A stretch of 64,000 nt of DNA from Pseudoalteromonas sp. (GCF_036960685.1 NZ_JBALXK010000003.1:244172-308171), one strand, 5' to 3'. Counted from the stretch's first letter, positions 43,169 through 64,000 are shown. Numbers and translations: made by a program. The notes: generated from the sequence alone by a model not told the origin.

Positions 43169-43249
43169 AAGAGTCTTCCTGTGTTAGGCTACTCTTTAGG
43201 TTTAGAACAAATCACTATTATTTACAAATTTCAACTAAACTATAGCTCT

Positions 43250-45418
43250 TTACTGATAAGCCTTTTGTTGAATAAGTAAAAGCAACTCAGCGGTAGCGCT
43301 AGCATCAGCTAAAGCACGGTGATGGTTAGTTAATGCTAAGCCAAAATGCGCGGATAAGTTACCAAGCGAGTAAGACTTAAGCCCTGCAAAGGCTTTACGT
43401 GATTCAACCACAGTACACAGCTTGGGCATTTTAAAATTAATGCCTGCCATTTCACACTCTTTACGGATAAAGCCATAATCAAAATTGACATTGTGGGCGA
43501 CAAAAATACTGCCTTGTAACTTGCTCACTAGTGTATCGGCAATGTGGTTAAAGCTAGGTGCAGACGCAACCATGGCGTCGGTGATCCCCGTTAACGACAC
43601 AATAAATTTAGGAATACGCATTTGCGGATTCACCAGTGTTGACCAAGTTTCGATAACCTTGCCGTGCTGCATTTTCACAAGGCCAATTTCAGTGATCCGA
43701 TTGCCGCCTTTTAAATTACCGGTTGTTTCAATGTCGACCACACTGTAAATACGGTTAGGGTCGTTAACCCAATTCACGGCTGCAATTTGTACGTTAAATC
43801 TAGATTGTTTCAGGTTATCGATGGTGGTTAGCTGATTACGCCTAAGTTTATCACCGGGCGCTTTAACCTCTTCAAAATAGACGGTGCTGTCCTTTAAAAT
43901 CATTAGATCAGGGTAGCCGTCTTTTAGTTCTAAAAAGCGCATGCTCATGTTTTTTAAGTGGCTTTTTAGCGCTGTAACAGGGCTATTTAAAATAAGTACT
44001 TCTAATGGTTTTAACAGCTCAGTGTGCCAACGAAATAAGCCATTTGGTTGCTCAAAATAGCGCGCCGCGTTTTTGCACACATGCTTTAGTAAATCATCAG
44101 GTGTTTGCCACTGCGCAAGTAGTGCATCAATTTGCTGCTGTTGTGTGTGATAAAAGCTATTCGCGCGCAATACGTGTGGAAATAAATCAAATTCATTACA
44201 CGGTGGGTGAGGCGTTTCTACGTAAAGTTCGTGCCAAAATACCAGGCCAAACAGGCTTTGCCATAGCGTGTTCTCGGTGTTAAATGCTTGCAGGCCTTGG
44301 TTTGCATAATACTGTGCCACTCCTAGCTCTACATCGCCGCGATAAATCTCATCTATTTCAATTACACACTGTGTATCCGCAAGCATGGTGCTTAATCGAG
44401 AGCGGGTTTGTTTATTGAATTTACGCATTAAGAAATCATCGGCAAAATAGAGCTGATCATCGGTCAGTGGATCTTCAATAATGGTTTCAAGCTTTGCTTT
44501 AACCCAGTCCTTATTACCTTGGCGATATTGCTCGCGTATTTGTATTTCTGTGGCTTCAGGACTATTTTCACAGGCGTTTAATATTTTAAAACTGAGTTTT
44601 TCATCTACTTTTTTTAGCTGCTGGTAGAGCCTCAGTAATAGCTTATTTTTAAGATTAACTGCCAGTGTGCCTTGTGCTTGTTGCGTAATTACCTCGTGAG
44701 CTAAACTTGGGTATTGCTCGTCATTTTTTATGTTCTTAAATGCCAAACGAGAGCGGTTTAACGTATAGTTCGATTTTGCCTCATCTAAAGTATCAAAGCG
44801 CGCCAAGCTCTGTTCGTGACTTTGCCTTGTTGCTCTAACGCCTAAATCACGCAGTACAAAACTATTTTGATGATTGATATCGCCACTACTTAAACGGCCA
44901 ATGTATAAAAACTCAAAGTACTCATAAATATCAGCGCGGTTGTTAATTATAAATTGGTGATACAAAGGGGTTAAATACTCAAGTTTGCAGGCAAAAAAAT
45001 CGCAAGCCTTTGTTACTAATGTCGCTTTGGCAGCACTTTTTTTAATATTCAATGTAGTCGTAAACGGCGATAGTAGCTCAAGTAATGCTGGTTTTGTTAA
45101 ATGAGCAAGCACGTGTTGGTAGTCGCTGTTGCTTGGGTGTGCAATTAGGCCCGCGTGTTCTAATTCTGTAATTGCCTGTGCCGGACTAGGTATTTCATCA
45201 TAATCGAGAGTGTGTATTGCCACTAACAAGGGCTTTCGTGAATAAATACGCGCAAGCATGCATTGGCCTTGCTCACTTAGGTTAGTAACTTGTGTAATAA
45301 AATCAAAATGCTTTTGCTCTAACAAGTGATTGCATTGGGTGTTTATAAATGCGAGTAACTCATGAAAATGAGCTAAATAATATTTCGCTGGAAGCGCTTT
45401 GTGCATCACGTTTATCAT
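43250..45418 (-). CDS. FAN1-like VRR-NUC nuclease fused to a C-terminal DEDDh 3'-5' exonuclease
   Basis: YYLAHF N-terminus; GYPDL...FEEVKAPGD.L...Q; then VVDIETTG, FVAHNVNFD, CTV and HHRALADA. Confidence 0.9.
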   Translation of the reverse strand: MINVMHKALPAKYYLAHFHELLAFINTQCNHLLEQKHFDFITQVTNLSEQGQCMLARIYSRKPLLVAIHTLDYDEIPSPAQAITELEHAGLIAHPSNSDYQHVLAHLTKPALLELLSPFTTTLNIKKSAAKATLVTKACDFFACKLEYLTPLYHQFIINNRADIYEYFEFLYIGRLSSGDINHQNSFVLRDLGVRATRQSHEQSLARFDTLDEAKSNYTLNRSRLAFKNIKNDEQYPSLAHEVITQQAQGTLAVNLKNKLLLRLYQQLKKVDEKLSFKILNACENSPEATEIQIREQYRQGNKDWVKAKLETIIEDPLTDDQLYFADDFLMRKFNKQTRSRLSTMLADTQCVIEIDEIYRGDVELGVAQYYANQGLQAFNTENTLWQSLFGLVFWHELYVETPHPPCNEFDLFPHVLRANSFYHTQQQQIDALLAQWQTPDDLLKHVCKNAARYFEQPNGLFRWHTELLKPLEVLILNSPVTALKSHLKNMSMRFLELKDGYPDLMILKDSTVYFEEVKAPGDKLRRNQLTTIDNLKQSRFNVQIAAVNWVNDPNRIYSVVDIETTGNLKGGNRITEIGLVKMQHGKVIETWSTLVNPQMRIPKFIVSLTGITDAMVASAPSFNHIADTLVSKLQGSIFVAHNVNFDYGFIRKECEMAGINFKMPKLCTVVESRKAFAGLKSYSLGNLSAHFGLALTNHHRALADASATAELLLLIQQKAYQ

Positions 45419-45427
45419 TTACTAGTG

Positions 45428-45443
45428 CTGTATATATAAACAG
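45428..45443. promoter_or_regulatory. LexA (SOS) box
   Basis: CTGTATATATAAACAG (CTG-N10-CAG, one mismatch to the consensus core), 9 bp upstream of the nuclease ATG. Confidence 0.85.
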
Positions 45444-45781
45444 TGTACTGTAATTTATTTAGCTAGGCCATAAAAATAAAAGAACAACCTGAGTGATGTT
45501 AATTTATGGTCGCTCTTGCTACTTTAATTGGATGATTATAGCTAAAACGTCTTTTAAAATTAATTGCTTAAGGTATTTAACGTTGAATTATTGCTTGGTA
45601 CTGATCTGTATCTCTTAAGTGTTGCAAGCCTTGATTAAAATCGTCACGTAAAAAGTTATCTTTAAAGCTTACTTAGTGATGCGTTTCAATGGGAAAGATA
45701 TCATGGAAATCTATTTGTTTAACTGTGTCATATGTAGAGGCTAGTTTGTTTATAAGTTTTTGAAATATATATTTATCTACA

Positions 45782-46232
45782 ATTCCACTGCCGGTGGATT
45801 TTACGCTCACGGGTCGTGCATATAAAAGCTAAACTTTAATTACCTGTTATTATACCAATCGGCTTAAATATTTAACCATTCTAGCGTGCTAAATAAAGCG
45901 CTAACTGCGTTATAAATTTCTCAAGTAGAACAACTACATGTCGAAATTTATGCCTTGTTATCACTCTATTTATCTATCGCTATAAATGGCTAATAACTTG
46001 ACACGATTGGTATCAATTATCCGCAAGTACAGAACAAGATTGCCAAATGTTGCATAAAGGTGGTTTAACCACTTGTATGGATGCGGCAATTATTTTTAAT
46101 GATCGTTGTTATGGCACGTTAAATGTTGCGCGAATTGCAGGGCGCTTTAGCGAGCAAGAAGCTATTCAATTGTTTTGTATCGCGAGTATATTGGGGTTAA
46201 GTTTTAGGGCTTGTGATAGTCGCTCAGCATAG
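45782..46232 (+). pseudogene. Decayed GAF-domain gene (probably a sensor of a GGDEF-type protein) interrupted by a MITE-like element
   Basis: IPLPVDFTLTGRAYKS*TLITCY (45782-45850) continues after the insert as QLSASTEQDCQMLHKGGLTTCMDAAIIFNDRCYGTLNVA, a GAF-like pattern. Confidence 0.6.
45852..46013. mobile_element. ~162-bp MITE/ERIC-like imperfect palindromic element
   Basis: Terminal inverted repeats ATACCAATCG...CGATTGGTAT; internal dyad AAATTTC..GTAG-AACAA-CTAC..GAAATTT; no coding capacity. Confidence 0.7.
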
Positions 46233-46287
46233 CTGACAAGTGCAGCTTATGTGCTCATGAGCTTAGCGTGGTTTATGCGGGGGAAAT

Positions 46288-46318
46288 AAAAGCAGGTGAG
46301 TTAGCTCACCTGCTTTTT
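46288..46318 (-). terminator. Terminator of the S8 protease gene (could act in both directions)
   Basis: aaaagcaggtgag-ttag-ctcacctgctttt. Confidence 0.8.
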
Positions 46319-46339
46319 AATTACTAAATTAACAACGGG

Positions 46340-49300
46340 TTAATCTAGCGAGTAAGCACGTAATACCGATTGATCAGTGCTGTTGTTTTTAGCATCAGTC
46401 ACAATCACACGTAAGTGAACAAATTGACCAGCCTCAGCGGCATTTGGAATAGTTGCATACCATTGACCACCAATATTCTCAACTTTTGCTACTTCTGAGA
46501 TATCCTCAGGTAGTACGCGGTCATTAAGTGTCGGATAGCTAGTGCTTTCGTCTTGACGACATCTGCCATAGCCATACATTCTACATTCACGGCCGTAGCT
46601 GTAGCTTACTTGTACATTGGTTAAATCAACAACGCCGTCAGCTTCAGATACAGCACCAATTTTGATTTTTACAGGTGTATTTGCAGTCGCCGTATTTTGT
46701 AAGTCTAAAGGCACATCAATAGAAGGTATTAACATTGATTGCGGCCCTTGGCTATCAGCGCTGGTGGTAAACGTGTGAGTTACGAAAAGTTCTGCACTTA
46801 GCTGTTCATTAGCTTGGTGAGTTGCACCTACTGCACGCTTAGAAGTATTGATTGAATATTCGACTACGGCCGGTTCATCAGGTAGCTCTAAGTAACCATT
46901 ACTTAAATAAACTTGTTCACCGTTGAGTGTTAAACCATAAGATGAACTTAGACTGTACCCTAAACCACCATCATGACCATTACTATCACCATATGCAGCA
47001 TTTGCAATGTGCAATAGATTTGTATCGCGATAAGCGCGCGAGCGACCACTGGTTAGTAAAGCGGCGCCCCAAGGTGCTTTATCCCAGCTTGTTGCTGTGT
47101 GGCTACCAATAACATGTTCTCGAGAACCATCAAATAAGCCACCATCGGTGTTAAAGTAAATACTTGGCATAACTAGATTAGTCCAAGCGACCCTTGGTAA
47201 TGCTTTATCTTTACCTTTTAGTGGTTCTGCCGCTTTAGTTGCCGTAAAGTACTCAGTACGCACGCTTGGTGTGGCAATTAGCTGTGGGCTGCCCGTGGCA
47301 TAAAACTCTCCTGTGCTTGGTAGATTTGCATAAATATCAGAATACTTAATGCGGGCTTCACCTTGTGTATAGTGGGTTGTTTCGATGGCTGATAAATCTT
47401 TGTTTTTAACTTTAATGGTGCCTGTCATGATTTTACCATCATTCAAGTGCGCTAAGTTATAAACATAAGGTGAATGCTCATGCGCAATACCTGACCAGTT
47501 AATTGTTAACTCTGGATTTTGTTCTAACTCTGCATAGATTTTTTCCATTTCACTTTGCGCAATTGCTGCCACTGGAATATCGTAGCGGCCAGATATGTTT
47601 GGTTTATAGCGGCCAGTACGATTATTAACAGAACCAATTACACCTACAGCGCCATGCTCTTGTGCATTTTTGATTTGCGTGCCAGTAATATAAAAGTCTG
47701 CATCGACGAGAGCAATTTTACCTGCGACATCAAATTGACTCCAATCAGTTGAGTAACCACCATCACCGACCGCAACAACCTCAGCGCTGCCTTGGCCATT
47801 AAATGATTTTGCAGCACCTGCTAAAATGTACTCAAGTTGGGTGCCGTTTTCAGTGGTGATAACGGGTTTTGGCGCAAAAGCACGGGTTGTTAAAAAGCTT
47901 CTAAAACGCTCATCATAGCCAGTTGATTTTGTATAAAAACCAGTTACATAGTCAGGCGCAAGTTCCATTGCAGCGAGCTTCAGTGTGTCTTTTTCGCTTA
48001 ACGCATAAGTGAAACCAAATGAGAAACCTTGCATTTGTGAAGGTTTATCCGTTTTAAAGGTCACAGGCTCAGCGGTGCTTGCATCAAAACTAATACTGGT
48101 ATCTACGTCTAAATCCACACCTAATTCGGCCATCATAGTTGCAGATTCTACTAAGCCGCCAAAAGGGGTTGGATTATCATAAGTCATAATATGACTGACA
48201 ACACTGTATTTACCTTTCGGTAGTTCAACAGTCGCTGTACCATTGGTAAATTGACCTGATTGACCCCAAGTATCTTCACCACTCATGATATAAAACTTAG
48301 ATGGGCTTGCTGCCGGAAGGCCTAAACGGTCATTGGCATTAAGTATTAGGTTCATTGTTGGTGGTTCAATCCAGAAGGATACAGGCACGGTAATCTTTTG
48401 TAAGTCGTCAAACTTACCATTTTTATAATGGCCTTTCTTTTTGCCATTGTGAGATTTTACCTCCGTCCCTTTAATACGACCTGTTATCGTACCGTAAGCT
48501 GCGTTTTCTAGTGCTACAGTTGGGTTGATCCACACCGGTACTTCAACGCTGCTGTTAGCTCCAATTGTAACGCGTTTAGCATCAAGACCTGCAAGGTTGT
48601 AGGCTGATAATGGCTTGTCGTCTTCACCGACAAAAGTCACCTCTAAATCAAATGTCACATCTTCATCACTGATATTTTCTAAAGTAACACTGCTTTGGTG
48701 ACTTTCAACCGGGTTTTGTGAGTCAAAGAAACCCAGTTCAAGGTTTGGTTGCGCAATTACAGATTGCACCATCGCTTGGTTGACGTCCATTGGACCCGCG
48801 CCTTGGTCAAGTACATGGGCACGGGTTTCGGTGACAGATGAAGTTAAAACTGCTTTTAATTGCTGTGGCGTAAGCTCTGGGCGAGCTTGTAATACCACTG
48901 CTGCACCGCCTGCAACGTGTGGTGCAGACATCGAAGTTCCTGAGTTAGCACGATACGCATACTCGCCTTTACCACCTGATGCTGCCGCGATAACGTTCAC
49001 ACCTTGAGAGGTAATATCAGGTTTGGCTGAGTGCCCATCTGGTGAAGGACCTCGGCTTGAGAATTCAGCGGTTACATTTTCACGATCTGCGGCGCCAACG
49101 GTTAAGGCATATGGTGAACAACCTGGAGAGCCAATAGTTTCACGGATAAAATTGTTACCTGCAGAGATGACGAATAACGCTTGATCTTTTAATGCTTCAA
49201 CCATTTCAACCATAGGGCCGTCACAGGCTGTCACTGAGCCACCTAACGACATATTAACGATATCAGCACCATTATCAACGGCCCACTGCATACCAGCAAG

Positions 49301-50302
49301 AATGCCAGACGTTGACCCTGAACCATTGTCAGCCAGTACTTTAGCAATCAACAAATCAGCACCTGGTGCCATACCAACATATTTACCATTACTTGCAACA
49401 CCAGAACCTGCAACGGTTGAAGCGGTATGCGTACCATGGCCATTTAAGTCATCAATATTTGGCGTGTTGTAACTGCTGAAATCTTGATACATGAAAATGT
49501 TAGTTTGCAGATCTGGGTGATCGGTATCAAAGCCAGTATCGAGAACGGCAACTTTGATCCCTGTACCATCGTAATCTACAGCGTATGGGCCATAAGCACC
49601 TGTTAGTGGCACAGTTGGTGATGTTTCATCTGCCGCTATTTGATTTTTCCACCAGTGATCTTTATCTTTTTTACCTTTGCCCTTATTGTGGCCTGGGTTG
49701 TTTTTAGCTGGGTGTTTATGAGCGAATACCATGCCATCTAGCCATACGCCTTCAACTGCAGTATTTGCTGAAAGGCCCTCAATTACGTCTTCGAGGTTAT
49801 CTTTGTTGACTTCCATTACTACACTGTCGATAACTTTGAATTGTGCTTTGACTTTGGCACCAGGCATCGCCATTGAAAAAGGCTTTTCATCAAAGCTGTT
49901 GTCACGATATTCAACAATGATTTGCAGAGAGTCAGAGCTGGCATCATCAAAGCCTGCTTGATAGAGCTTATCAATATTGAAAAGCTCCATATCTAAGGCG
50001 CCAGAGTCAACTTTTGCTTGTACAGATGCCGGGATCACGTAGCTCTCACCGCCACGTTTAAATAGACTGGTAAATGTTTCTTGACCGTCTTCAGCAAGTA
50101 AACGAATGCCACCAATAGTGCCATCGGTATTTAAACGGGCAGCAACTTTATCACCGGTGATTAGGGTAAAACTAAGGTTTCTTTCAGAGCTCTCAGGTTG
50201 TGCGTCTGCAAAGGCATGGCTACTGATGGTAGATAATAATCCAACATAAAGCGTTTTTCGCAAAGCACGCGTTAAAGTGGAAAGATTTGGTTTTTTTTTC
50301 AT
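46340..50302 (-). CDS. Large secreted S8 subtilase: signal peptide, pro-domain, catalytic domain, PA domain and C-terminal domains
   Basis: Triad motifs VAVLDTG, NGHGTHTAS and SGTSMSAPHVAG; PA-like VAGKIALV. Confidence 0.95.
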   Translation of the reverse strand: MKKKPNLSTLTRALRKTLYVGLLSTISSHAFADAQPESSERNLSFTLITGDKVAARLNTDGTIGGIRLLAEDGQETFTSLFKRGGESYVIPASVQAKVDSGALDMELFNIDKLYQAGFDDASSDSLQIIVEYRDNSFDEKPFSMAMPGAKVKAQFKVIDSVVMEVNKDNLEDVIEGLSANTAVEGVWLDGMVFAHKHPAKNNPGHNKGKGKKDKDHWWKNQIAADETSPTVPLTGAYGPYAVDYDGTGIKVAVLDTGFDTDHPDLQTNIFMYQDFSSYNTPNIDDLNGHGTHTASTVAGSGVASNGKYVGMAPGADLLIAKVLADNGSGSTSGILAGMQWAVDNGADIVNMSLGGSVTACDGPMVEMVEALKDQALFVISAGNNFIRETIGSPGCSPYALTVGAADRENVTAEFSSRGPSPDGHSAKPDITSQGVNVIAAASGGKGEYAYRANSGTSMSAPHVAGGAAVVLQARPELTPQQLKAVLTSSVTETRAHVLDQGAGPMDVNQAMVQSVIAQPNLELGFFDSQNPVESHQSSVTLENISDEDVTFDLEVTFVGEDDKPLSAYNLAGLDAKRVTIGANSSVEVPVWINPTVALENAAYGTITGRIKGTEVKSHNGKKKGHYKNGKFDDLQKITVPVSFWIEPPTMNLILNANDRLGLPAASPSKFYIMSGEDTWGQSGQFTNGTATVELPKGKYSVVSHIMTYDNPTPFGGLVESATMMAELGVDLDVDTSISFDASTAEPVTFKTDKPSQMQGFSFGFTYALSEKDTLKLAAMELAPDYVTGFYTKSTGYDERFRSFLTTRAFAPKPVITTENGTQLEYILAGAAKSFNGQGSAEVVAVGDGGYSTDWSQFDVAGKIALVDADFYITGTQIKNAQEHGAVGVIGSVNNRTGRYKPNISGRYDIPVAAIAQSEMEKIYAELEQNPELTINWSGIAHEHSPYVYNLAHLNDGKIMTGTIKVKNKDLSAIETTHYTQGEARIKYSDIYANLPSTGEFYATGSPQLIATPSVRTEYFTATKAAEPLKGKDKALPRVAWTNLVMPSIYFNTDGGLFDGSREHVIGSHTATSWDKAPWGAALLTSGRSRAYRDTNLLHIANAAYGDSNGHDGGLGYSLSSSYGLTLNGEQVYLSNGYLELPDEPAVVEYSINTSKRAVGATHQANEQLSAELFVTHTFTTSADSQGPQSMLIPSIDVPLDLQNTATANTPVKIKIGAVSEADGVVDLTNVQVSYSYGRECRMYGYGRCRQDESTSYPTLNDRVLPEDISEVAKVENIGGQWYATIPNAAEAGQFVHLRVIVTDAKNNSTDQSVLRAYSLD

Positions 50303-50367
50303 TATTTATCCTTAGATTGATGATTTATTGTGTTTTTGTATTTAGTCGTTCTGATGGTCGATAACCA

Positions 50368-50907
50368 TTAGTGGTGAGTGATTTGCTTATCTAATGTGAC
50401 GGATTTAATTGTTGGGTCGTTACTTATCTGTAGCCACGTTTGAGTTAATTTAGATTTATCTAATCGAATAAACTGTGTGTTGATAGCGGGATAAAATTGA
50501 CTGTCTATTCCTGCTGTTAGGCGTTGCTGTGGAACTGAGTATTTAACTAACACAGGCAGGTAGTTGCTATTGCGATCATCAAGTTTTAGTGACACCAGTT
50601 TTGATAAGTTAAACAGCTCAACATTGACCCTACCTTGCTTTATAAGGGATTGTGTGTGGTTGGGAATTAAATAGGTCTGTGCATTTTTTACATAAGCAAT
50701 AAATGTGCTAGTAGGGTCGTTTAATCGAGCGTGGGCAATCGATTGCGTTTGGCTAATATCGAAAATCGCGACATCCCCCGTGATCAGGGTTATTTGCTGC
50801 TGCGCAATTTTATTAGCTGAAACCACAGGGCGCACAAGCGCAGCTACGTGAGTACTGGCAATACCCATCAAAATAATTAATACAACCAGTAATAGTTTAT
50901 TACTCAA
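50368..50907 (-). CDS. Secreted stand-alone paralog of the S8 pro-domain
   Basis: Signal peptide, then TLITGD...YLIP...ELFNLSKL...DD...LPVLVKY...VTLD, colinear with the protease pro-region. Confidence 0.8.
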   Translation of the reverse strand: MSNKLLLVVLIILMGIASTHVAALVRPVVSANKIAQQQITLITGDVAIFDISQTQSIAHARLNDPTSTFIAYVKNAQTYLIPNHTQSLIKQGRVNVELFNLSKLVSLKLDDRNSNYLPVLVKYSVPQQRLTAGIDSQFYPAINTQFIRLDKSKLTQTWLQISNDPTIKSVTLDKQITHH

Positions 50908-51246
50908 ATCTATAATTCCAATTCTTTATCATTATAAAATTAAATTCTGCTAATTATTTATGGTTAATCATTTGGTATGGAAAACCAAGCGCACAAATGT
51001 AGCGTTTTGTAGCTTCAGTTAACTATTTAGAAATATAATTAACAGTAAAGTTAAGCGGTGATAATTGACGAAAACGATGGAATGTTGTTATTTAGGGTCT
51101 CTTTAGGCAGTTTTTTTAATCTTTTTTCTAAGCCATTTTATAAAAGCTAATACAGTTACTTACAGCTACTTAGCCGCCACCAATTTAGGCTGTTCACAGT
51201 TTGTCAACCTTGAATTATCAGTTCACTTACTCTAACCTTTATTTTT

Positions 51247-59879: not shown

Positions 59880-60971
59880 TTATTTTATTGTTTTTCCTGC
59901 GCTGTTCAATCGGTATTTGTAACGTGCTGTTTTCGGGTCACGCTCGCTGATAAATAGATAATCATCAGCAAGGTCACCAATTGTCTTTTGTAGCTGAGCT
60001 TTAATTTTATTACGGTTTTGATCCAGCGTTTTACCTTTGAGCCCTTCTTCAGTTAAATCACGAATAGCCTTTTGGTGGCCGTTATAAGCTGTCATTAATT
60101 GGGCTAATTGTTCACCACTTTCTCTATCAGGTTTATTAGTTGGCGGGTTGGTGTAGGGAGGAAGTTTATTAATTTCTCGTTGGGCGTACCAATAATAGTA
60201 AAATAGCGGGGTTTTAGCTAAAAAAATTGTCAAGCCATGAATAACAACCTGTTGTTGTGAAAGGTTAAAAACGATTGCTTCAGGGGATCTTGCAACAGCA
60301 ATCGCAGCTGTTATTTTTAATTGGTTATTAACAGCAACAATAAACCATTTTAACTGCACTTCACTAAGCGAGTTTACTTGCTCATTGCGACACAATGCGT
60401 TTACCTCATCAGCTGTTAATTGCGTTTTTTCAATGAGTTGTTGATATAAAATCGACTCTATTTGCTGATGACTATCAGCTAAATTGACACCGAGACTGTG
60501 GTTATTTACTTTTAACACAATGTCAGTGATGAGTTTATTTAACAGCCTATGAAATTGAATAACGAATAAGCTCAGCAATAAACTTAGCAGTAGGGTATTA
60601 GCAATATTAAAATGAGGTTTTGTTGTCAGCTGCAGTGAAATACTGCCTTCACCGTATGGCCAAGTAAAGTCACTGACTGGTTTATTTGCTGTGTTGTTGA
60701 TTAATTTAATCTTCGTAACTTCAAGTTGCTTAAGTAGCTCGAAGAATAGGGGATTAGTAACGTCAACTCGACTCAACACTTCCAGTAAATGGTTGCTTAT
60801 ACGGGCTAATTCATCATCACTACTTACCGCGTTTTTTAGTGAGGCATTAGTTAGTGTTGGCAGCGCTTGCTTTAAAAAAAACTCTAATGAGTTAGCCGCA
60901 CTGTACCATGCGTGAAGGCATAAACATGTGCTTATTAGCACGCAAAGCAGACTATGTTTTAATTTTATCAT
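59880..60971 (-). CDS. Membrane-spanning hypothetical protein, putative one-component regulator
   Basis: N-terminal hydrophobic segment, second TM near residues 125-145, and a basic C-terminal region (TPLFYYYWY...KTLDQNRNKIK...YKYRL); ATGA coupling to the upstream gene. Confidence 0.65.
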   Translation of the reverse strand: MIKLKHSLLCVLISTCLCLHAWYSAANSLEFFLKQALPTLTNASLKNAVSSDDELARISNHLLEVLSRVDVTNPLFFELLKQLEVTKIKLINNTANKPVSDFTWPYGEGSISLQLTTKPHFNIANTLLLSLLLSLFVIQFHRLLNKLITDIVLKVNNHSLGVNLADSHQQIESILYQQLIEKTQLTADEVNALCRNEQVNSLSEVQLKWFIVAVNNQLKITAAIAVARSPEAIVFNLSQQQVVIHGLTIFLAKTPLFYYYWYAQREINKLPPYTNPPTNKPDRESGEQLAQLMTAYNGHQKAIRDLTEEGLKGKTLDQNRNKIKAQLQKTIGDLADDYLFISERDPKTARYKYRLNSAGKTIK

Positions 60972-61810
60972 TGAGTGAGTTCAGTTTGGGTTGTTTTATG
61001 CTGAGTGACTTTGCTAAATAATTGCTGCTGATAGTGGATGATAAGATTTTTAATTTTTGCTCGTAGCTGGGGCTCAGTATTGTTACTTATAATCCAGATA
61101 ACTTTAGAGTTTGTTTCTTTAAGCGGTCGTTTTTTATCTTTTGGCCAGTTTATCAAGGCACTATAACGGTCAACACTGGGTATCACATCAAGCTTCTTTT
61201 TTATAAAATCAGCAACTAATGCTTCCCTGCTTGGATACAAATGTATTTGTTGCGAAGTTAAAGAGATACCTGCTTGACTAAGCTGACTCATTGGCGAGAG
61301 GTAACCTGAAGCACTGTTTTTATCTGCTAATAAACCAACTTGTTTATTTGCAAAGTAATCTGCAGTAATTGCCATGTTACTTTGATGAGAAAACCAGTAA
61401 GTAGAGTAATTGGGCAAATTCAATATTACTTGATAAAAATCAGTCCAATTAGGTAACAGTCCCACTAGAGCATGCTCTCTGTATAGCATGACATCAAAAT
61501 TTTGTGCCATCATCACATCGCTGTTTAGAGATCCCCTTGGTTGCCAAGAGATGGTTACTTTACTGTATGCAGTATTTTTCAGGGTGTTATTGCATAGCTC
61601 TTGCGCAAGCGTAGATACTTGCCAATTAGTTGGGATATAGAGATTAAAATTGTTTTTTCCATTAGGGTTAACAACATCACATTGATAGGTATATAACTGG
61701 CCAAGTTCAGGGTTTTTTATTTGTGGAGATGAAATAATATAAATCAAAAAAAGAGTGAATATACCGAGCAATAAGTATTTAGTTAAAGTTAGTAAGAGTC
61801 GGTATTGCAT
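60968..61810 (-). CDS. Membrane-anchored PhnD/SsuA-like substrate-binding protein
   Basis: N-terminal TM; VGLLADKNSASGYLSP resembles the PhnD D..S.SGYL.P motif. Confidence 0.7.
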   Translation of the reverse strand: MQYRLLLTLTKYLLLGIFTLFLIYIISSPQIKNPELGQLYTYQCDVVNPNGKNNFNLYIPTNWQVSTLAQELCNNTLKNTAYSKVTISWQPRGSLNSDVMMAQNFDVMLYREHALVGLLPNWTDFYQVILNLPNYSTYWFSHQSNMAITADYFANKQVGLLADKNSASGYLSPMSQLSQAGISLTSQQIHLYPSREALVADFIKKKLDVIPSVDRYSALINWPKDKKRPLKETNSKVIWIISNNTEPQLRAKIKNLIIHYQQQLFSKVTQHKTTQTELTQ

Positions 61811-61981: not shown

Positions 61982-62392
61982 TTAGCAAAGCTGTTTTACT
62001 TCATCAAGTTGTATATGCTCTATCACAGGGTCATTTAGTAATATTTTAAACACGTTAGCTGCTTGGGATTTTTCAATATTGGCGCTGCTAAAATTAATGA
62101 TTTTGAACTGCCGCTTGATGGTTATGCCCGTAATCAAATTAAGCGGCTGTTGATGCTTGATTAGCACCGGTAATACTGTTTTTGTATCATCGTATTTTGC
62201 TAAAGCAAGTTTTGATACGTTAAATAAATCTTTAGCGAGTTTACCTGCATTAATAAATGGCACGACCGTATCAGGTATAAAGAATATATGCCCAAGTCGG
62301 TCACAACTTTGGCTTCCTGTGCAGTTCAGTGGCTTGACGATGTTATTACTGAACTCGATGACATCGCCATTGATCAAAGTAAATTGTGCCAT
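61982..62392 (-). CDS. Stand-alone S8 pro-domain paralog without a signal peptide
   Basis: FTLINGD...FFIP...DLFNVSKL...YDD...LPVLIKH...IQLD, colinear with the protease pro-region and with the 50368-50907 protein. Confidence 0.75.
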   Translation of the reverse strand: MAQFTLINGDVIEFSNNIVKPLNCTGSQSCDRLGHIFFIPDTVVPFINAGKLAKDLFNVSKLALAKYDDTKTVLPVLIKHQQPLNLITGITIKRQFKIINFSSANIEKSQAANVFKILLNDPVIEHIQLDEVKQLC

Positions 62393-62447
62393 TGCGCGTC
62401 TCGTTTATCGATTATTATTTATCATTTATTAGAGTCACAAAGCGAGA

Positions 62448-62969
62448 TCATAAGGTCTCGCTGTACTCAGTCATGATTTGTTCAACCCAGTTGGCTATTC
62501 GCTCATCACTGTGTTCGTATTGGCTGTCTTCATCAAGCGCTAAACCAACAAAGTGTTTGCCGTCTTCGGTGAGTGCTTTCGAGGCTTCAAATTCATAGCT
62601 ACTGTCATTAGGCCACATGCCTAATAAAGTAAATTGTTGGTCGCTTATTTCGTCATGCAACATGCCGAGTGCATCTTGAAACCATTGGCCGTAACCTTGT
62701 TGGTCACCCATGCCAAATAAAGCAATGGTTTTGCCGTTAAGGTCAACATCTTTAATGTCATCCCAAATTGATTCCCAATCTTCTTGTAACTCACCAAAAT
62801 CCCATGTCGAGATACCAAAGATGATAAAGTCGTAATTCTCTGCGTTTTTTAATGGTTCATCTTTGATGTTATGTAGGCTGACAATGTCTTGACCGATAAT
62901 ATCGCGGATTTTTTCTGCCGCTATTTCTGTATAGCATGTGGTAGAACCATAAAATAAACCAATTTGCAT
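62448..62969 (-). CDS. fldB: Flavodoxin FldB
   Basis: [29 protein letters not shown] and ALFGMGDQ; divergent from xerD. Confidence 0.93.
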
Positions 62970-63061
62970 CGTATTTATCACTGTGTATTTGCCTGATATG
63001 ATAGGCTGAAGTTTACCGTAAGGTATTATTAATTGATACCTTGATAACTATGAGAATAACT

Positions 63062-64000
63062 GTGACAACGTTACCTGATCATGAGTCATTAGACTCAGCC
63101 AATACAGATCACGACGAATTACTCAGTAATAGTGATTACCTTGAGTCTTTTTTAGATAACCTCTATTTAGAACAACACGTAAGCGATAATACGCTATCAG
63201 CCTATCGTAGTGATTTAGATAAGTTTTGCCGATTTTTAGAAGGCCAAGATCTATTGACGGTCTGCGCTCAAGATATCGAAAGTTACTTAGCTCATCGTGT
63301 TGATTTAGGTTTAAAGCCACGCAGCACCGCGCGTAGTATTAGCGCATTAAAGCGTTTTTATCAGTACTTTGTGCGCGAAAAACATATTACCGATTCGCCA
63401 ATGGTGAATATTGCCCAGCCTAAAGCGGGGCAGTCACTGCCTAAAACTTTGTCTGAAAACGAAGTTGAGGCATTACTTGCAGCGCCTAATGTTGAAGAGC
63501 CTATGGGGCTGCGTGATAAAGCCATGCTGGAATTATTATACGCCACAGGATTGCGGGTCAGTGAATTAGTAGGGCTTAGGATGGAGCAAATTAATTTGCG
63601 TCAATCGGTGGTTTTTGTAAAAGGTAAAGGCAATAAAGAGCGTTTAGTACCGCTTGGTGAAGAAGCCATGTATTGGTTAGAGCAGTTTTTAAAAGTAGGC
63701 CGAGCGCAAATGATCAAACATGCCACTGATTTTGTGTTTCCGTCAAAGCGTGGAGTAGGCATGACTCGACAAACTTTTTGGCATCGTATTAAACACTATG
63801 CTATTTTGGCAGCAGTTGAATCACCTTTATCGCCCCATACGTTGCGTCATGCGTTTGCAACACACTTACTAAATCATGGTGCAGACCTGCGGGTTGTGCA
63901 GATGATGTTAGGGCATAGTGATTTATCAACCACACAAATTTATACCCATGTTGCTAATGAAAGGTTAAAGTCGGTACATCAGCAACATCATCCGCGCGCT
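63062..64000 (+). CDS. xerD: Site-specific tyrosine recombinase XerD; the stop codon lies just past the window, so it is absent from the ORF track
   Basis: GTG start; SDNTLSAYRSDL, RDKAMLELLYATGLRVSELV, GKGNKERLVP, SPHTLRHAFATHLLNHGADLRVVQMMLGHSDLSTTQIYTHV, ending HHPRA at 64000. Confidence 0.95.
   Translation, partial: MTTLPDHESLDSANTDHDELLSNSDYLESFLDNLYLEQHVSDNTLSAYRSDLDKFCRFLEGQDLLTVCAQDIESYLAHRVDLGLKPRSTARSISALKRFYQYFVREKHITDSPMVNIAQPKAGQSLPKTLSENEVEALLAAPNVEEPMGLRDKAMLELLYATGLRVSELVGLRMEQINLRQSVVFVKGKGNKERLVPLGEEAMYWLEQFLKVGRAQMIKHATDFVFPSKRGVGMTRQTFWHRIKHYAILAAVESPLSPHTLRHAFATHLLNHGADLRVVQMMLGHSDLSTTQIYTHVANERLKSVHQQHHPRA

Follow-up and report, generated by a model that had tools for sequence, protein, structure and literature searches.

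The gene studied here encodes a 136-aa leaderless paralog of a subtilase pro-domain (P0001, hereafter LL). It is located near the end of the window, which is the whole stretch of 64,000 nucleotides of Pseudoalteromonas DNA that was analyzed, beside the flavodoxin gene fldB. A gene for a large secreted subtilase that carries the same pro-domain, and a second stand-alone copy of this domain, lie in the same window. The features are as follows.

46340-50302, minus strand: secreted 1320-aa S8 subtilase with a PA domain (P0003), the presumed partner of LL
49718-50185, minus strand: cis pro-domain of the protease, P0003 residues ~40-195, ending with WLDGMVFAH
50368-50907, minus strand: secreted stand-alone pro-domain copy (P0002, 179 aa), with a strong signal peptide, ending with LDKQITHH
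61982-62392, minus strand: LL, assigned by homology, AF2 model and dN/dS
62411-62440, minus strand: candidate sigma-70-like site, TTGTGA/18-nt spacer/AATAAT, in the fldB-LL spacer; weak, consensus match 9/12
62441-62462, minus strand: hairpin AGCGAGA/8-nt loop/TCTCGCT, with a 7-bp stem, across the fldB stop codon, read from the sequence
62448-62981, minus strand: fldB (flavodoxin), the neighbor upstream of LL, PF00258 at the orthologous place
63041-64000, plus strand: xerD, open at the window end and divergent from fldB

Genomic setting of the leaderless gene

The spacer from fldB to LL is 55 bp in the window, and the fldB-LL spacers in the window's group are between 26 and 112 bp, with a hairpin across the fldB stop codon. 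The site at 62411-62440 is a possible promoter of LL, and co-transcription with fldB is equally possible; promoter-like sites showed no enrichment when compared with shuffled sequences. The same hairpin stem was found upstream of LL at the loci L004, L005 and L006, and it may serve as a terminator, an attenuator or a stabilizer of the fldB mRNA. An equivalent stem at the fldB stop codon was also seen in G056, G024, G057, G059 and G045, with or without LL after it.

LL was located downstream of fldB on the same strand in 16 of the 17 genomes that carry it, the exception being G125. At the locus of a G125-type strain (L036, 8580-11129), LL comes after two genes of no known family, of 379 and 86 aa, and is followed by a methyltransferase gene in convergent orientation. 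The group-2 genomes have a convergent gene and a bidirectional terminator between fldB and LL, and LL there has its own Shine-Dalgarno sequence, GAGGGA. The intervening gene, which we take by eye from its sequence to be DUF2147-like, encodes a secreted protein of 143-148 aa on the opposite strand and stands after a strong bidirectional terminator (~925-1500 of L011, L013 and L018). Since a convergent gene and a terminator intervene, the association of fldB with LL is positional rather than operonic, and obligatory co-transcription of the two genes was ruled out for group 2. With the short spacers of the window's group, co-transcription is possible there.

The genes 3' of LL differ even between G000 and G056. 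A PhnD-like gene lies directly 3' of LL in the window (60968-61810). In G056 (L004), where the LL-fldB locus is otherwise 93-99% identical to the window, no counterpart of this gene occurs within 1.5 kb of LL; hence the downstream cluster is not a conserved neighbor of LL. The distance from LL to the secreted copy was measured as 11.1 kb, in agreement with the 11 kb of the original prediction, and the distance to the protease gene is 11.7 kb. LL neither adjoins the protease gene nor is co-transcribed with it, and in this respect it departs from the class of cytoplasmic guard proteins, whose genes are next to that of the protease and co-transcribed with it.

Homology to the protease pro-domain and predicted fold

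The protease P0003 contains a Peptidase_S8 domain (E = 1.1e-57) and a PA domain (E = 1.3e-09), and among solved structures its catalytic domain is closest to those of 9ues and 3afg (Tk-SP). BLASTP aligned LL with residues 45-189 of P0003 over 145 columns (E = 1e-11, 26% identity) and with the secreted copy over 143 columns (E = 3e-14, 29% identity), while the secreted copy matched the protease with an E-value of 9e-15. When a profile of the leaderless orthologs was compared with 87 cis pro-domains using hhalign, the probability was 99.7% (E = 6e-27, 134 columns); against the secreted copies it was 99.2% (E = 2e-19). These results confirmed by both pairwise and profile-profile comparison that LL is a true homolog and the third pro-domain copy, in a genome with exactly three. 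The conserved blocks named in the original prediction are real as well, since 15 columns are invariant in all three classes in a 12-row alignment (T5, L6, I7, G9, D10, I39, P40, L56, F57, N58, L62, D69, K108, L129 and D130).

LL matched no Pfam family at E up to 10 and no NCBIfam family at E up to 1, the secreted copy matched no Pfam or NCBIfam model, and no Pfam family covered the pro-region of eight distant relatives (E up to 0.01). Residues 127-184 of the P0003 pro-region gave a sub-threshold match to PF22148, Fervidolysin_NPro-like, with an E-value of 0.048 and 14.5 bits compared with a cut-off of 21. The curated I9 model (MEROPS I9/PF05922) does not recognize LL. LL is homologous to a real subtilase propeptide, as the BLASTP and hhalign matches show. 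Every LL ortholog carries the annotation hypothetical protein.

The AF2 model of LL had a pLDDT of 88 and a pTM of 0.79. According to DSSP, it consists of five N-terminal strands, helices at residues 41-64, and then a beta-beta-beta-alpha-beta arrangement at residues 73-129. The N-terminal half (residues 1-65) is beta-rich and contains the blocks FTLINGD and FFIP...LFNVSKL...YDD, and the C-terminal half (residues ~70-136), ending with LD-EVKQLC, is I9-like in the model. The top Foldseek matches in the PDB were entries of the Tk-subtilisin propeptide (3wiv_C, 2zwo_A, 3vhq and 3a3n_B), with probabilities of 0.97-0.99 and weak E-values of 0.085-0.6. They superimposed with an rmsd of 2.4-2.9 Å over ~64 columns, and the TM relative to the propeptide (63 residues) was 0.69. 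POIA1, an I9 inhibitor, was also among the matches. The C-terminal half of LL models as a subtilisin-propeptide (I9-like) fold. The first I9 helix is not in its canonical place in the model, and the helices at residues 41-64 might substitute for it.

A search of the PDB with the LL profile picked out the prosegments of subtilisin BPN' (E = 0.22) and subtilisin E (E = 0.68). In a one-to-one search, profile positions 89-135 aligned to residues 33-75 of the BPN' prosegment. In this alignment, the family's invariant LD pairs with Glu70-Asp71 of BPN', with D130 on Asp71, one of the helix-capping residues in the 1SPB complex. The 137-position profile ends at Tyr77, the P1 residue of the BPN' autoprocessing site. 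Six residues follow the LD in each case, namely EVKQLC in LL, KQITHH in the secreted copy, GMVFAH in the cis domain, where a basic linker comes next, and HVAHAY in BPN'. Since these six-residue tails are equal in length, both stand-alone proteins stop where a processed propeptide would stop, and the chain end of LL would lie at about the P1 position of a propeptide, within one residue. The I9-type tail, i.e., an end at P1 together with an acidic helix cap, is present in LL by alignment only.

The LL orthologs share a conserved QL-x at the tail, with C, F, S, H, Q or R at P1. The P2/P1 residues are AH in the cis pro-domain and HH, HY, MH or AH in the secreted copies. The group-2 LL proteins run on with Pro-Pro at the would-be P1'-P2' positions (LDEVMQLQ-PP...), and a proline at P1' is generally unfavorable for cleavage. 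An AF2 prediction of the pro and catalytic regions of the protease (505 aa, 12-row alignment) had a pLDDT of 35 and gave no docking geometry. From the end of the pro-domain to the predicted mature N-terminus (SPTVPLTG), P0003 has a Lys/His/Gly-rich basic linker (residues 196-222, window 49637-49717), KHPAKNNPGHNKGKGKKDKDHWWKNQIAADE, and this linker is much shorter in the consensus of the group-2 proteases.

Selection, distribution and origin of LL

LL begins three residues before the FTLI motif, and an in-frame stop is located four codons upstream. All 17 orthologs start with M-x-x-[FY]-T-[LF]-[IL]-x-[GA]-D, without a hydrophobic leader, and the NCBI annotation has the same start in the group-2 members (143 aa). 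The in-frame sequence 5' of the ortholog starts is neither conserved nor hydrophobic. Together with the upstream stop, this led us to reject a hidden N-terminal extension or an alternative start. The highest 12-residue Kyte-Doolittle mean near the N-terminus was 0.99 for LL versus 3.53 for the secreted copy, the first eight residues of LL contain no Lys or Arg, and residues 2-5 form a strand of the fold in the AF2 model. The original prediction that LL has no signal peptide holds for all 17 orthologs, and the lack of an export signal is a trait that LL shares with the cytoplasmic guard class. Conversely, the traits of the secreted copy (a signal peptide, a position directly upstream of the protease and a His-rich C-terminus) are all missing from LL.

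The LL orthologs are intact, with lengths of 136-145 aa, down to 42% identity, and their dN/dS values were 0.07-0.17 (NG86), showing that LL is a real gene under purifying selection.

A domain-profile search of 140 Pseudoalteromonas species genomes found LL in 17 species and the protease (1230-1350 aa with this pro-domain) in 18, with both genes together in 14 species. The secreted copy was present in four species (G000, G056, G024 and G069), always directly upstream of the protease, while the other ten species with LL and the protease were without it. The proposed system of one inhibitor per compartment therefore fits four species and does not hold for these ten. LL and the protease are on different contigs in 10 of the 14 species, and on different replicons in G068, G027 and G004, so that linkage cannot explain their association. 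LL without an ortholog of the protease was found in three complete genomes (G057, G125 and G119), which hold only S8 paralogs ~35% identical to the protease, and the protease without LL was found in four distant species with small genomes (G047, G090, G091 and G092).

Relatedness was assessed by XerD identity, which is a crude yardstick, and the clades rest on single genes. Group A (XerD at least 96%; 8 species) contained three species with both genes, one with LL only and four with neither; the corresponding numbers for group B (XerD 90-91%; 6 species) were one, one and four, and group C (12 species) had ten with both and two with neither. For the 26 species of groups A-C taken together, 14 had both genes, two had LL only, none had the protease only and ten had neither. 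Hence LL co-occurs with the S8 gene in all 14 protease carriers of the three clades. With shared ancestry ignored, the Fisher p value was 1e-5 among the 26 species and 3e-13 among all 140.

When 1.84 billion representative proteins were searched exhaustively with the profile, the pro-domain family comprised 1,238 clusters (E up to 1e-3). The domain lies at ~40-200 in most of them, in proteins of 1000-1400 aa, one of which is named as an S8 peptidase, from Shewanella. Leaderless stand-alone forms were seen only in the P0011, P0012 and P0014 clusters, and P0011 and the named members of the other two are from Pseudoalteromonas. A segment of the domain (IP...G.LD..LFN...L...YDD, profile positions 40-83) also gave 10 and 14 tandem matches in P0024 (610 aa) and P0114 (3280 aa), respectively; the two proteins are long and unrelated, so this portion of the domain also exists as a repeat module.

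In a quick IQ-TREE analysis of 156 domains, the LL sequences grouped as a single clade (SH-aLRT 99) whose long stem measured 1.58 substitutions per site. A separate clade (SH-aLRT 95) held the secreted copies, with relatives in Pseudoalteromonas and Colwellia, and the two clades were loosely joined (92, unresolved). The pro-domains of the Pseudoalteromonas proteases formed a clade of their own (98) with P0020 (Shewanella) and two other sequences. This placement indicates that LL is a derived paralog confined to this lineage, and its ancestor may have been a secreted stand-alone copy from which the leader was lost. The original prediction had suggested an older origin or a wider distribution for LL than for the protease. 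Neither part was upheld: LL is one long-stemmed derived clade and a single-gene indel at the fldB site, and it occurs in 17 species and three clusters, versus 18 species and 1,238 clusters for the protease and its family.

The pro and catalytic regions of the G000 protease are 95% identical to those of G069 but only 80% identical to those of G056, the closest relative of G000. The LL of G000 is 93% identical to that of G056 and 58% identical to that of G069, and its fldB is 99% and 94% identical, respectively. Judged from these identities, the protease module has moved independently of LL. The secreted copy of G000 groups with that of G056, and the copy of G069 with that of G024. The protease module (window 46340-50907) looks to have recombined among species, and the breakpoint would lie between its two genes.

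Six LL-negative relatives keep xerD and fldB, and those of group C the DUF2147-like gene as well; tblastn detected no remnant of LL in these six. Both flanks are collinear in the five LL-negative relatives that blastn resolved on both sides, where the place of LL is taken by 224-278 bp or 1.9 kb of unrelated sequence. LL is thus a dispensable single-gene indel between conserved flanks. In the fldB DNA tree, the protease-less subclades, (G057,(G007,(G045,SG43-7,G059))), (G010,G119) and (G005,G094), contain LL-keeping genomes alongside genomes from which LL has gone. Such an order of events would be expected if LL is no longer needed once the protease is lost. For the LL pair of G057 and SG43-7, of which protease absence was established for G057 only, dN/dS was 0.37 (26 non-synonymous and 17 synonymous differences), compared with 0.08-0.17 at similar dS in protease-carrying lineages (Fisher p 0.008-0.09, depending on the comparator).

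In G057 (L032, 13662-18203), ~4.5 kb of unrelated DNA replaces 7.9 kb of the window (43229-51122) between betI and a conserved gene. The replaced stretch holds the genes for the S8 protease and the secreted copy together with an exonuclease-like gene (722 aa); the replacement marks it as a variable island.

Proposed function and related systems

We propose, as a reading about evenly poised between right and wrong, that LL is a cytoplasmic mimic of the pro-domain that guards against the giant S8/PA subtilase. In the manner of a propeptide acting in trans, LL would dock on the catalytic domain whenever a protease molecule folds ahead of Sec export, with the C-terminal tail of LL lying in the substrate cleft like a product, and activity in the cytoplasm would be blocked. 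In a variant of this mechanism, LL would act as a pre-export holdase. The cytoplasmic location, the binding and the inhibition are what we infer, and the guard function is plausible, with circumstantial support from homology, absence of a leader, selection and distribution.

Several observations speak against a guard. The QL-x tail of LL is unlike the His-rich P2/P1 residues found in the cis domain and the secreted copies, and the LL clade has a long stem (1.58) that would also suit a functional shift. The protease is found without LL in four species, and LL is intact in three genomes that have no protease. Sec substrates cross the membrane unfolded, and a Sec substrate with its own cis pro-domain may perhaps need no cytoplasmic guard. 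No cytoplasmic S8 target was found in this genome, where all ten S8 genes encode hydrophobic N-termini.

The main rival reading, which we regard as less likely than the guard but worth weighing, is that LL was exapted for a cytoplasmic role unrelated to inhibiting this protease, e.g., with another partner. The long stem and separate clade of LL, its diverged tail, and its intact state in the three complete genomes without the cognate protease are consistent with exaptation. So are the conserved position at the side of fldB, the Shine-Dalgarno sequence and promoter region that LL has of its own in group 2, and the fact that LL follows the core phylogeny while the protease module is exchanged. 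A precedent is yeast IB2, which acts with thioredoxin in vacuole fusion (PMC2134815). However, LL is present in every protease carrier of clades A-C and was repeatedly lost only where the protease is absent, its dN/dS is raised in a protease-less lineage, and two propeptide features, the Asp cap and a C-terminus of P1 length, have been kept. Its absence from 123 of the 140 species also argues against a general housekeeping role. All ten S8 genes encode hydrophobic N-termini, so each candidate target is exported, and this would suit an LL that acts outside the cytoplasm (after non-classical release or lysis) or on another S8 protease, as a trans inhibitor or folding catalyst. Propeptides do act in trans in vitro, as is generally known and as described in PMC6993865. 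This possibility nevertheless seems improbable, because LL has no recognizable signal and its N-terminus is a strand of the fold in the AF2 model, a separate secreted copy already exists in four species, and the distribution of LL tracks one protease family and not S8 genes generally.

It is scarcely credible that LL is a functionless relic, either a decaying duplicate of the pro-domain or a chance ORF. The annotation as hypothetical protein, the lack of a curated family and the dispensability in close relatives would agree with a relic, but the purifying selection (dN/dS 0.07-0.17) and the intact orthologs of 136-145 aa, without a frameshift or stop, ruled out a pseudogene or chance ORF; moreover, the start codon is conserved in the 17 species down to 42% identity, and the fold is predicted with confidence. 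Returning to the guard function, a fuller version of it can be offered tentatively, with less conviction than the guard itself. The subtilase would be handled at three levels (in cis, in trans by the secreted copy and in trans in the cytoplasm), with LL being antidote-like, or LL would have gained a second, protease-independent role. If LL is an antidote, carriage of the protease would depend on LL, and LL would outlive loss of the protease and then decay.

The guard concept itself is known from cysteine proteases. Spi has been described as an analogue of the SpeB propeptide, and staphostatins as exerting cytoplasmic control of premature zymogen activation (as summarized in PMC2873492, citing Kagawa et al. 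2005 and Shaw et al. 2005, respectively). Spi of Streptococcus pyogenes resembles LL in being a small, leaderless propeptide analogue, for which protection of the producer from ectopic or premature activity has been proposed. In contrast, the target of Spi is a C10 cysteine protease, and its gene adjoins speB and is co-transcribed with it, whereas LL belongs to an S8 serine system and lies 11 kb away or on another replicon. Also unlike Spi, LL is a two-part domain of 136 aa, and it is a putative inhibitor. The staphostatins A and B (ScpB and SspC of Staphylococcus aureus) follow the logic proposed here for LL, in which a cytoplasmic inhibitor acts against premature activation of a Sec-exported zymogen. 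Unlike LL, they have a lipocalin-like fold unrelated to a propeptide and are in an operon with a cysteine protease.

Stand-alone I9-like inhibitors include POIA1, the yeast proteinase B inhibitor, AtSPI-1, TgMIC5 and SUB1-ProM (PMC6993865). Like LL, these proteins (IB2/PBI2 in yeast) are stand-alone mimics of subtilase propeptides, and a C-terminal tail of product length is typical of them. Yeast IB2 is cytosolic with a vacuolar target, and has a second, protease-independent role (PMC2134815); the proposed LL would likewise be cytosolic with its subtilase in another compartment. The I9 mimics are all eukaryotic and mostly have no detectable similarity to real propeptides, and convergence has been proposed for them. 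Unlike these mimics, LL is a clear sequence paralog of a pro-domain and has an extra beta-rich N-terminal half. The nearest likeness within the window is P0002, which is encoded by a separate gene and has the same two-part domain and six-residue tail after LD; it differs from LL in its signal peptide, its place directly upstream of the protease, its His-rich P2/P1 residues and its separate clade.

From a limited literature search, we know of no characterized bacterial subtilase counterpart of Spi and the staphostatins. While the concept of a guard is known, the instance described here differs in that it concerns a Gram-negative bacterium and a serine protease, the candidate guard is a pro-domain paralog unlinked to the protease, and a second, secreted copy exists in four species. 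If the proposed function is true, bacteria would have in LL a first equivalent of Spi and the staphostatins for a serine protease, derived by duplication of a pro-domain. Its evolutionary route would be clear, with a pro-domain that was duplicated and then lost its leader, in contrast to the convergence proposed for the eukaryotic I9 proteins. The pro-domain of this S8/PA family spans ~150 aa, and no Pfam model matched it in the sequences tested. LL would then be a ready-made specific protein inhibitor for a widespread family of 1000-1400-aa S8/PA proteases. If LL does inhibit its presumed partner, the self-protection seen with the cysteine proteases of Gram-positive pathogens would extend to the serine subtilase of a marine Gram-negative bacterium.
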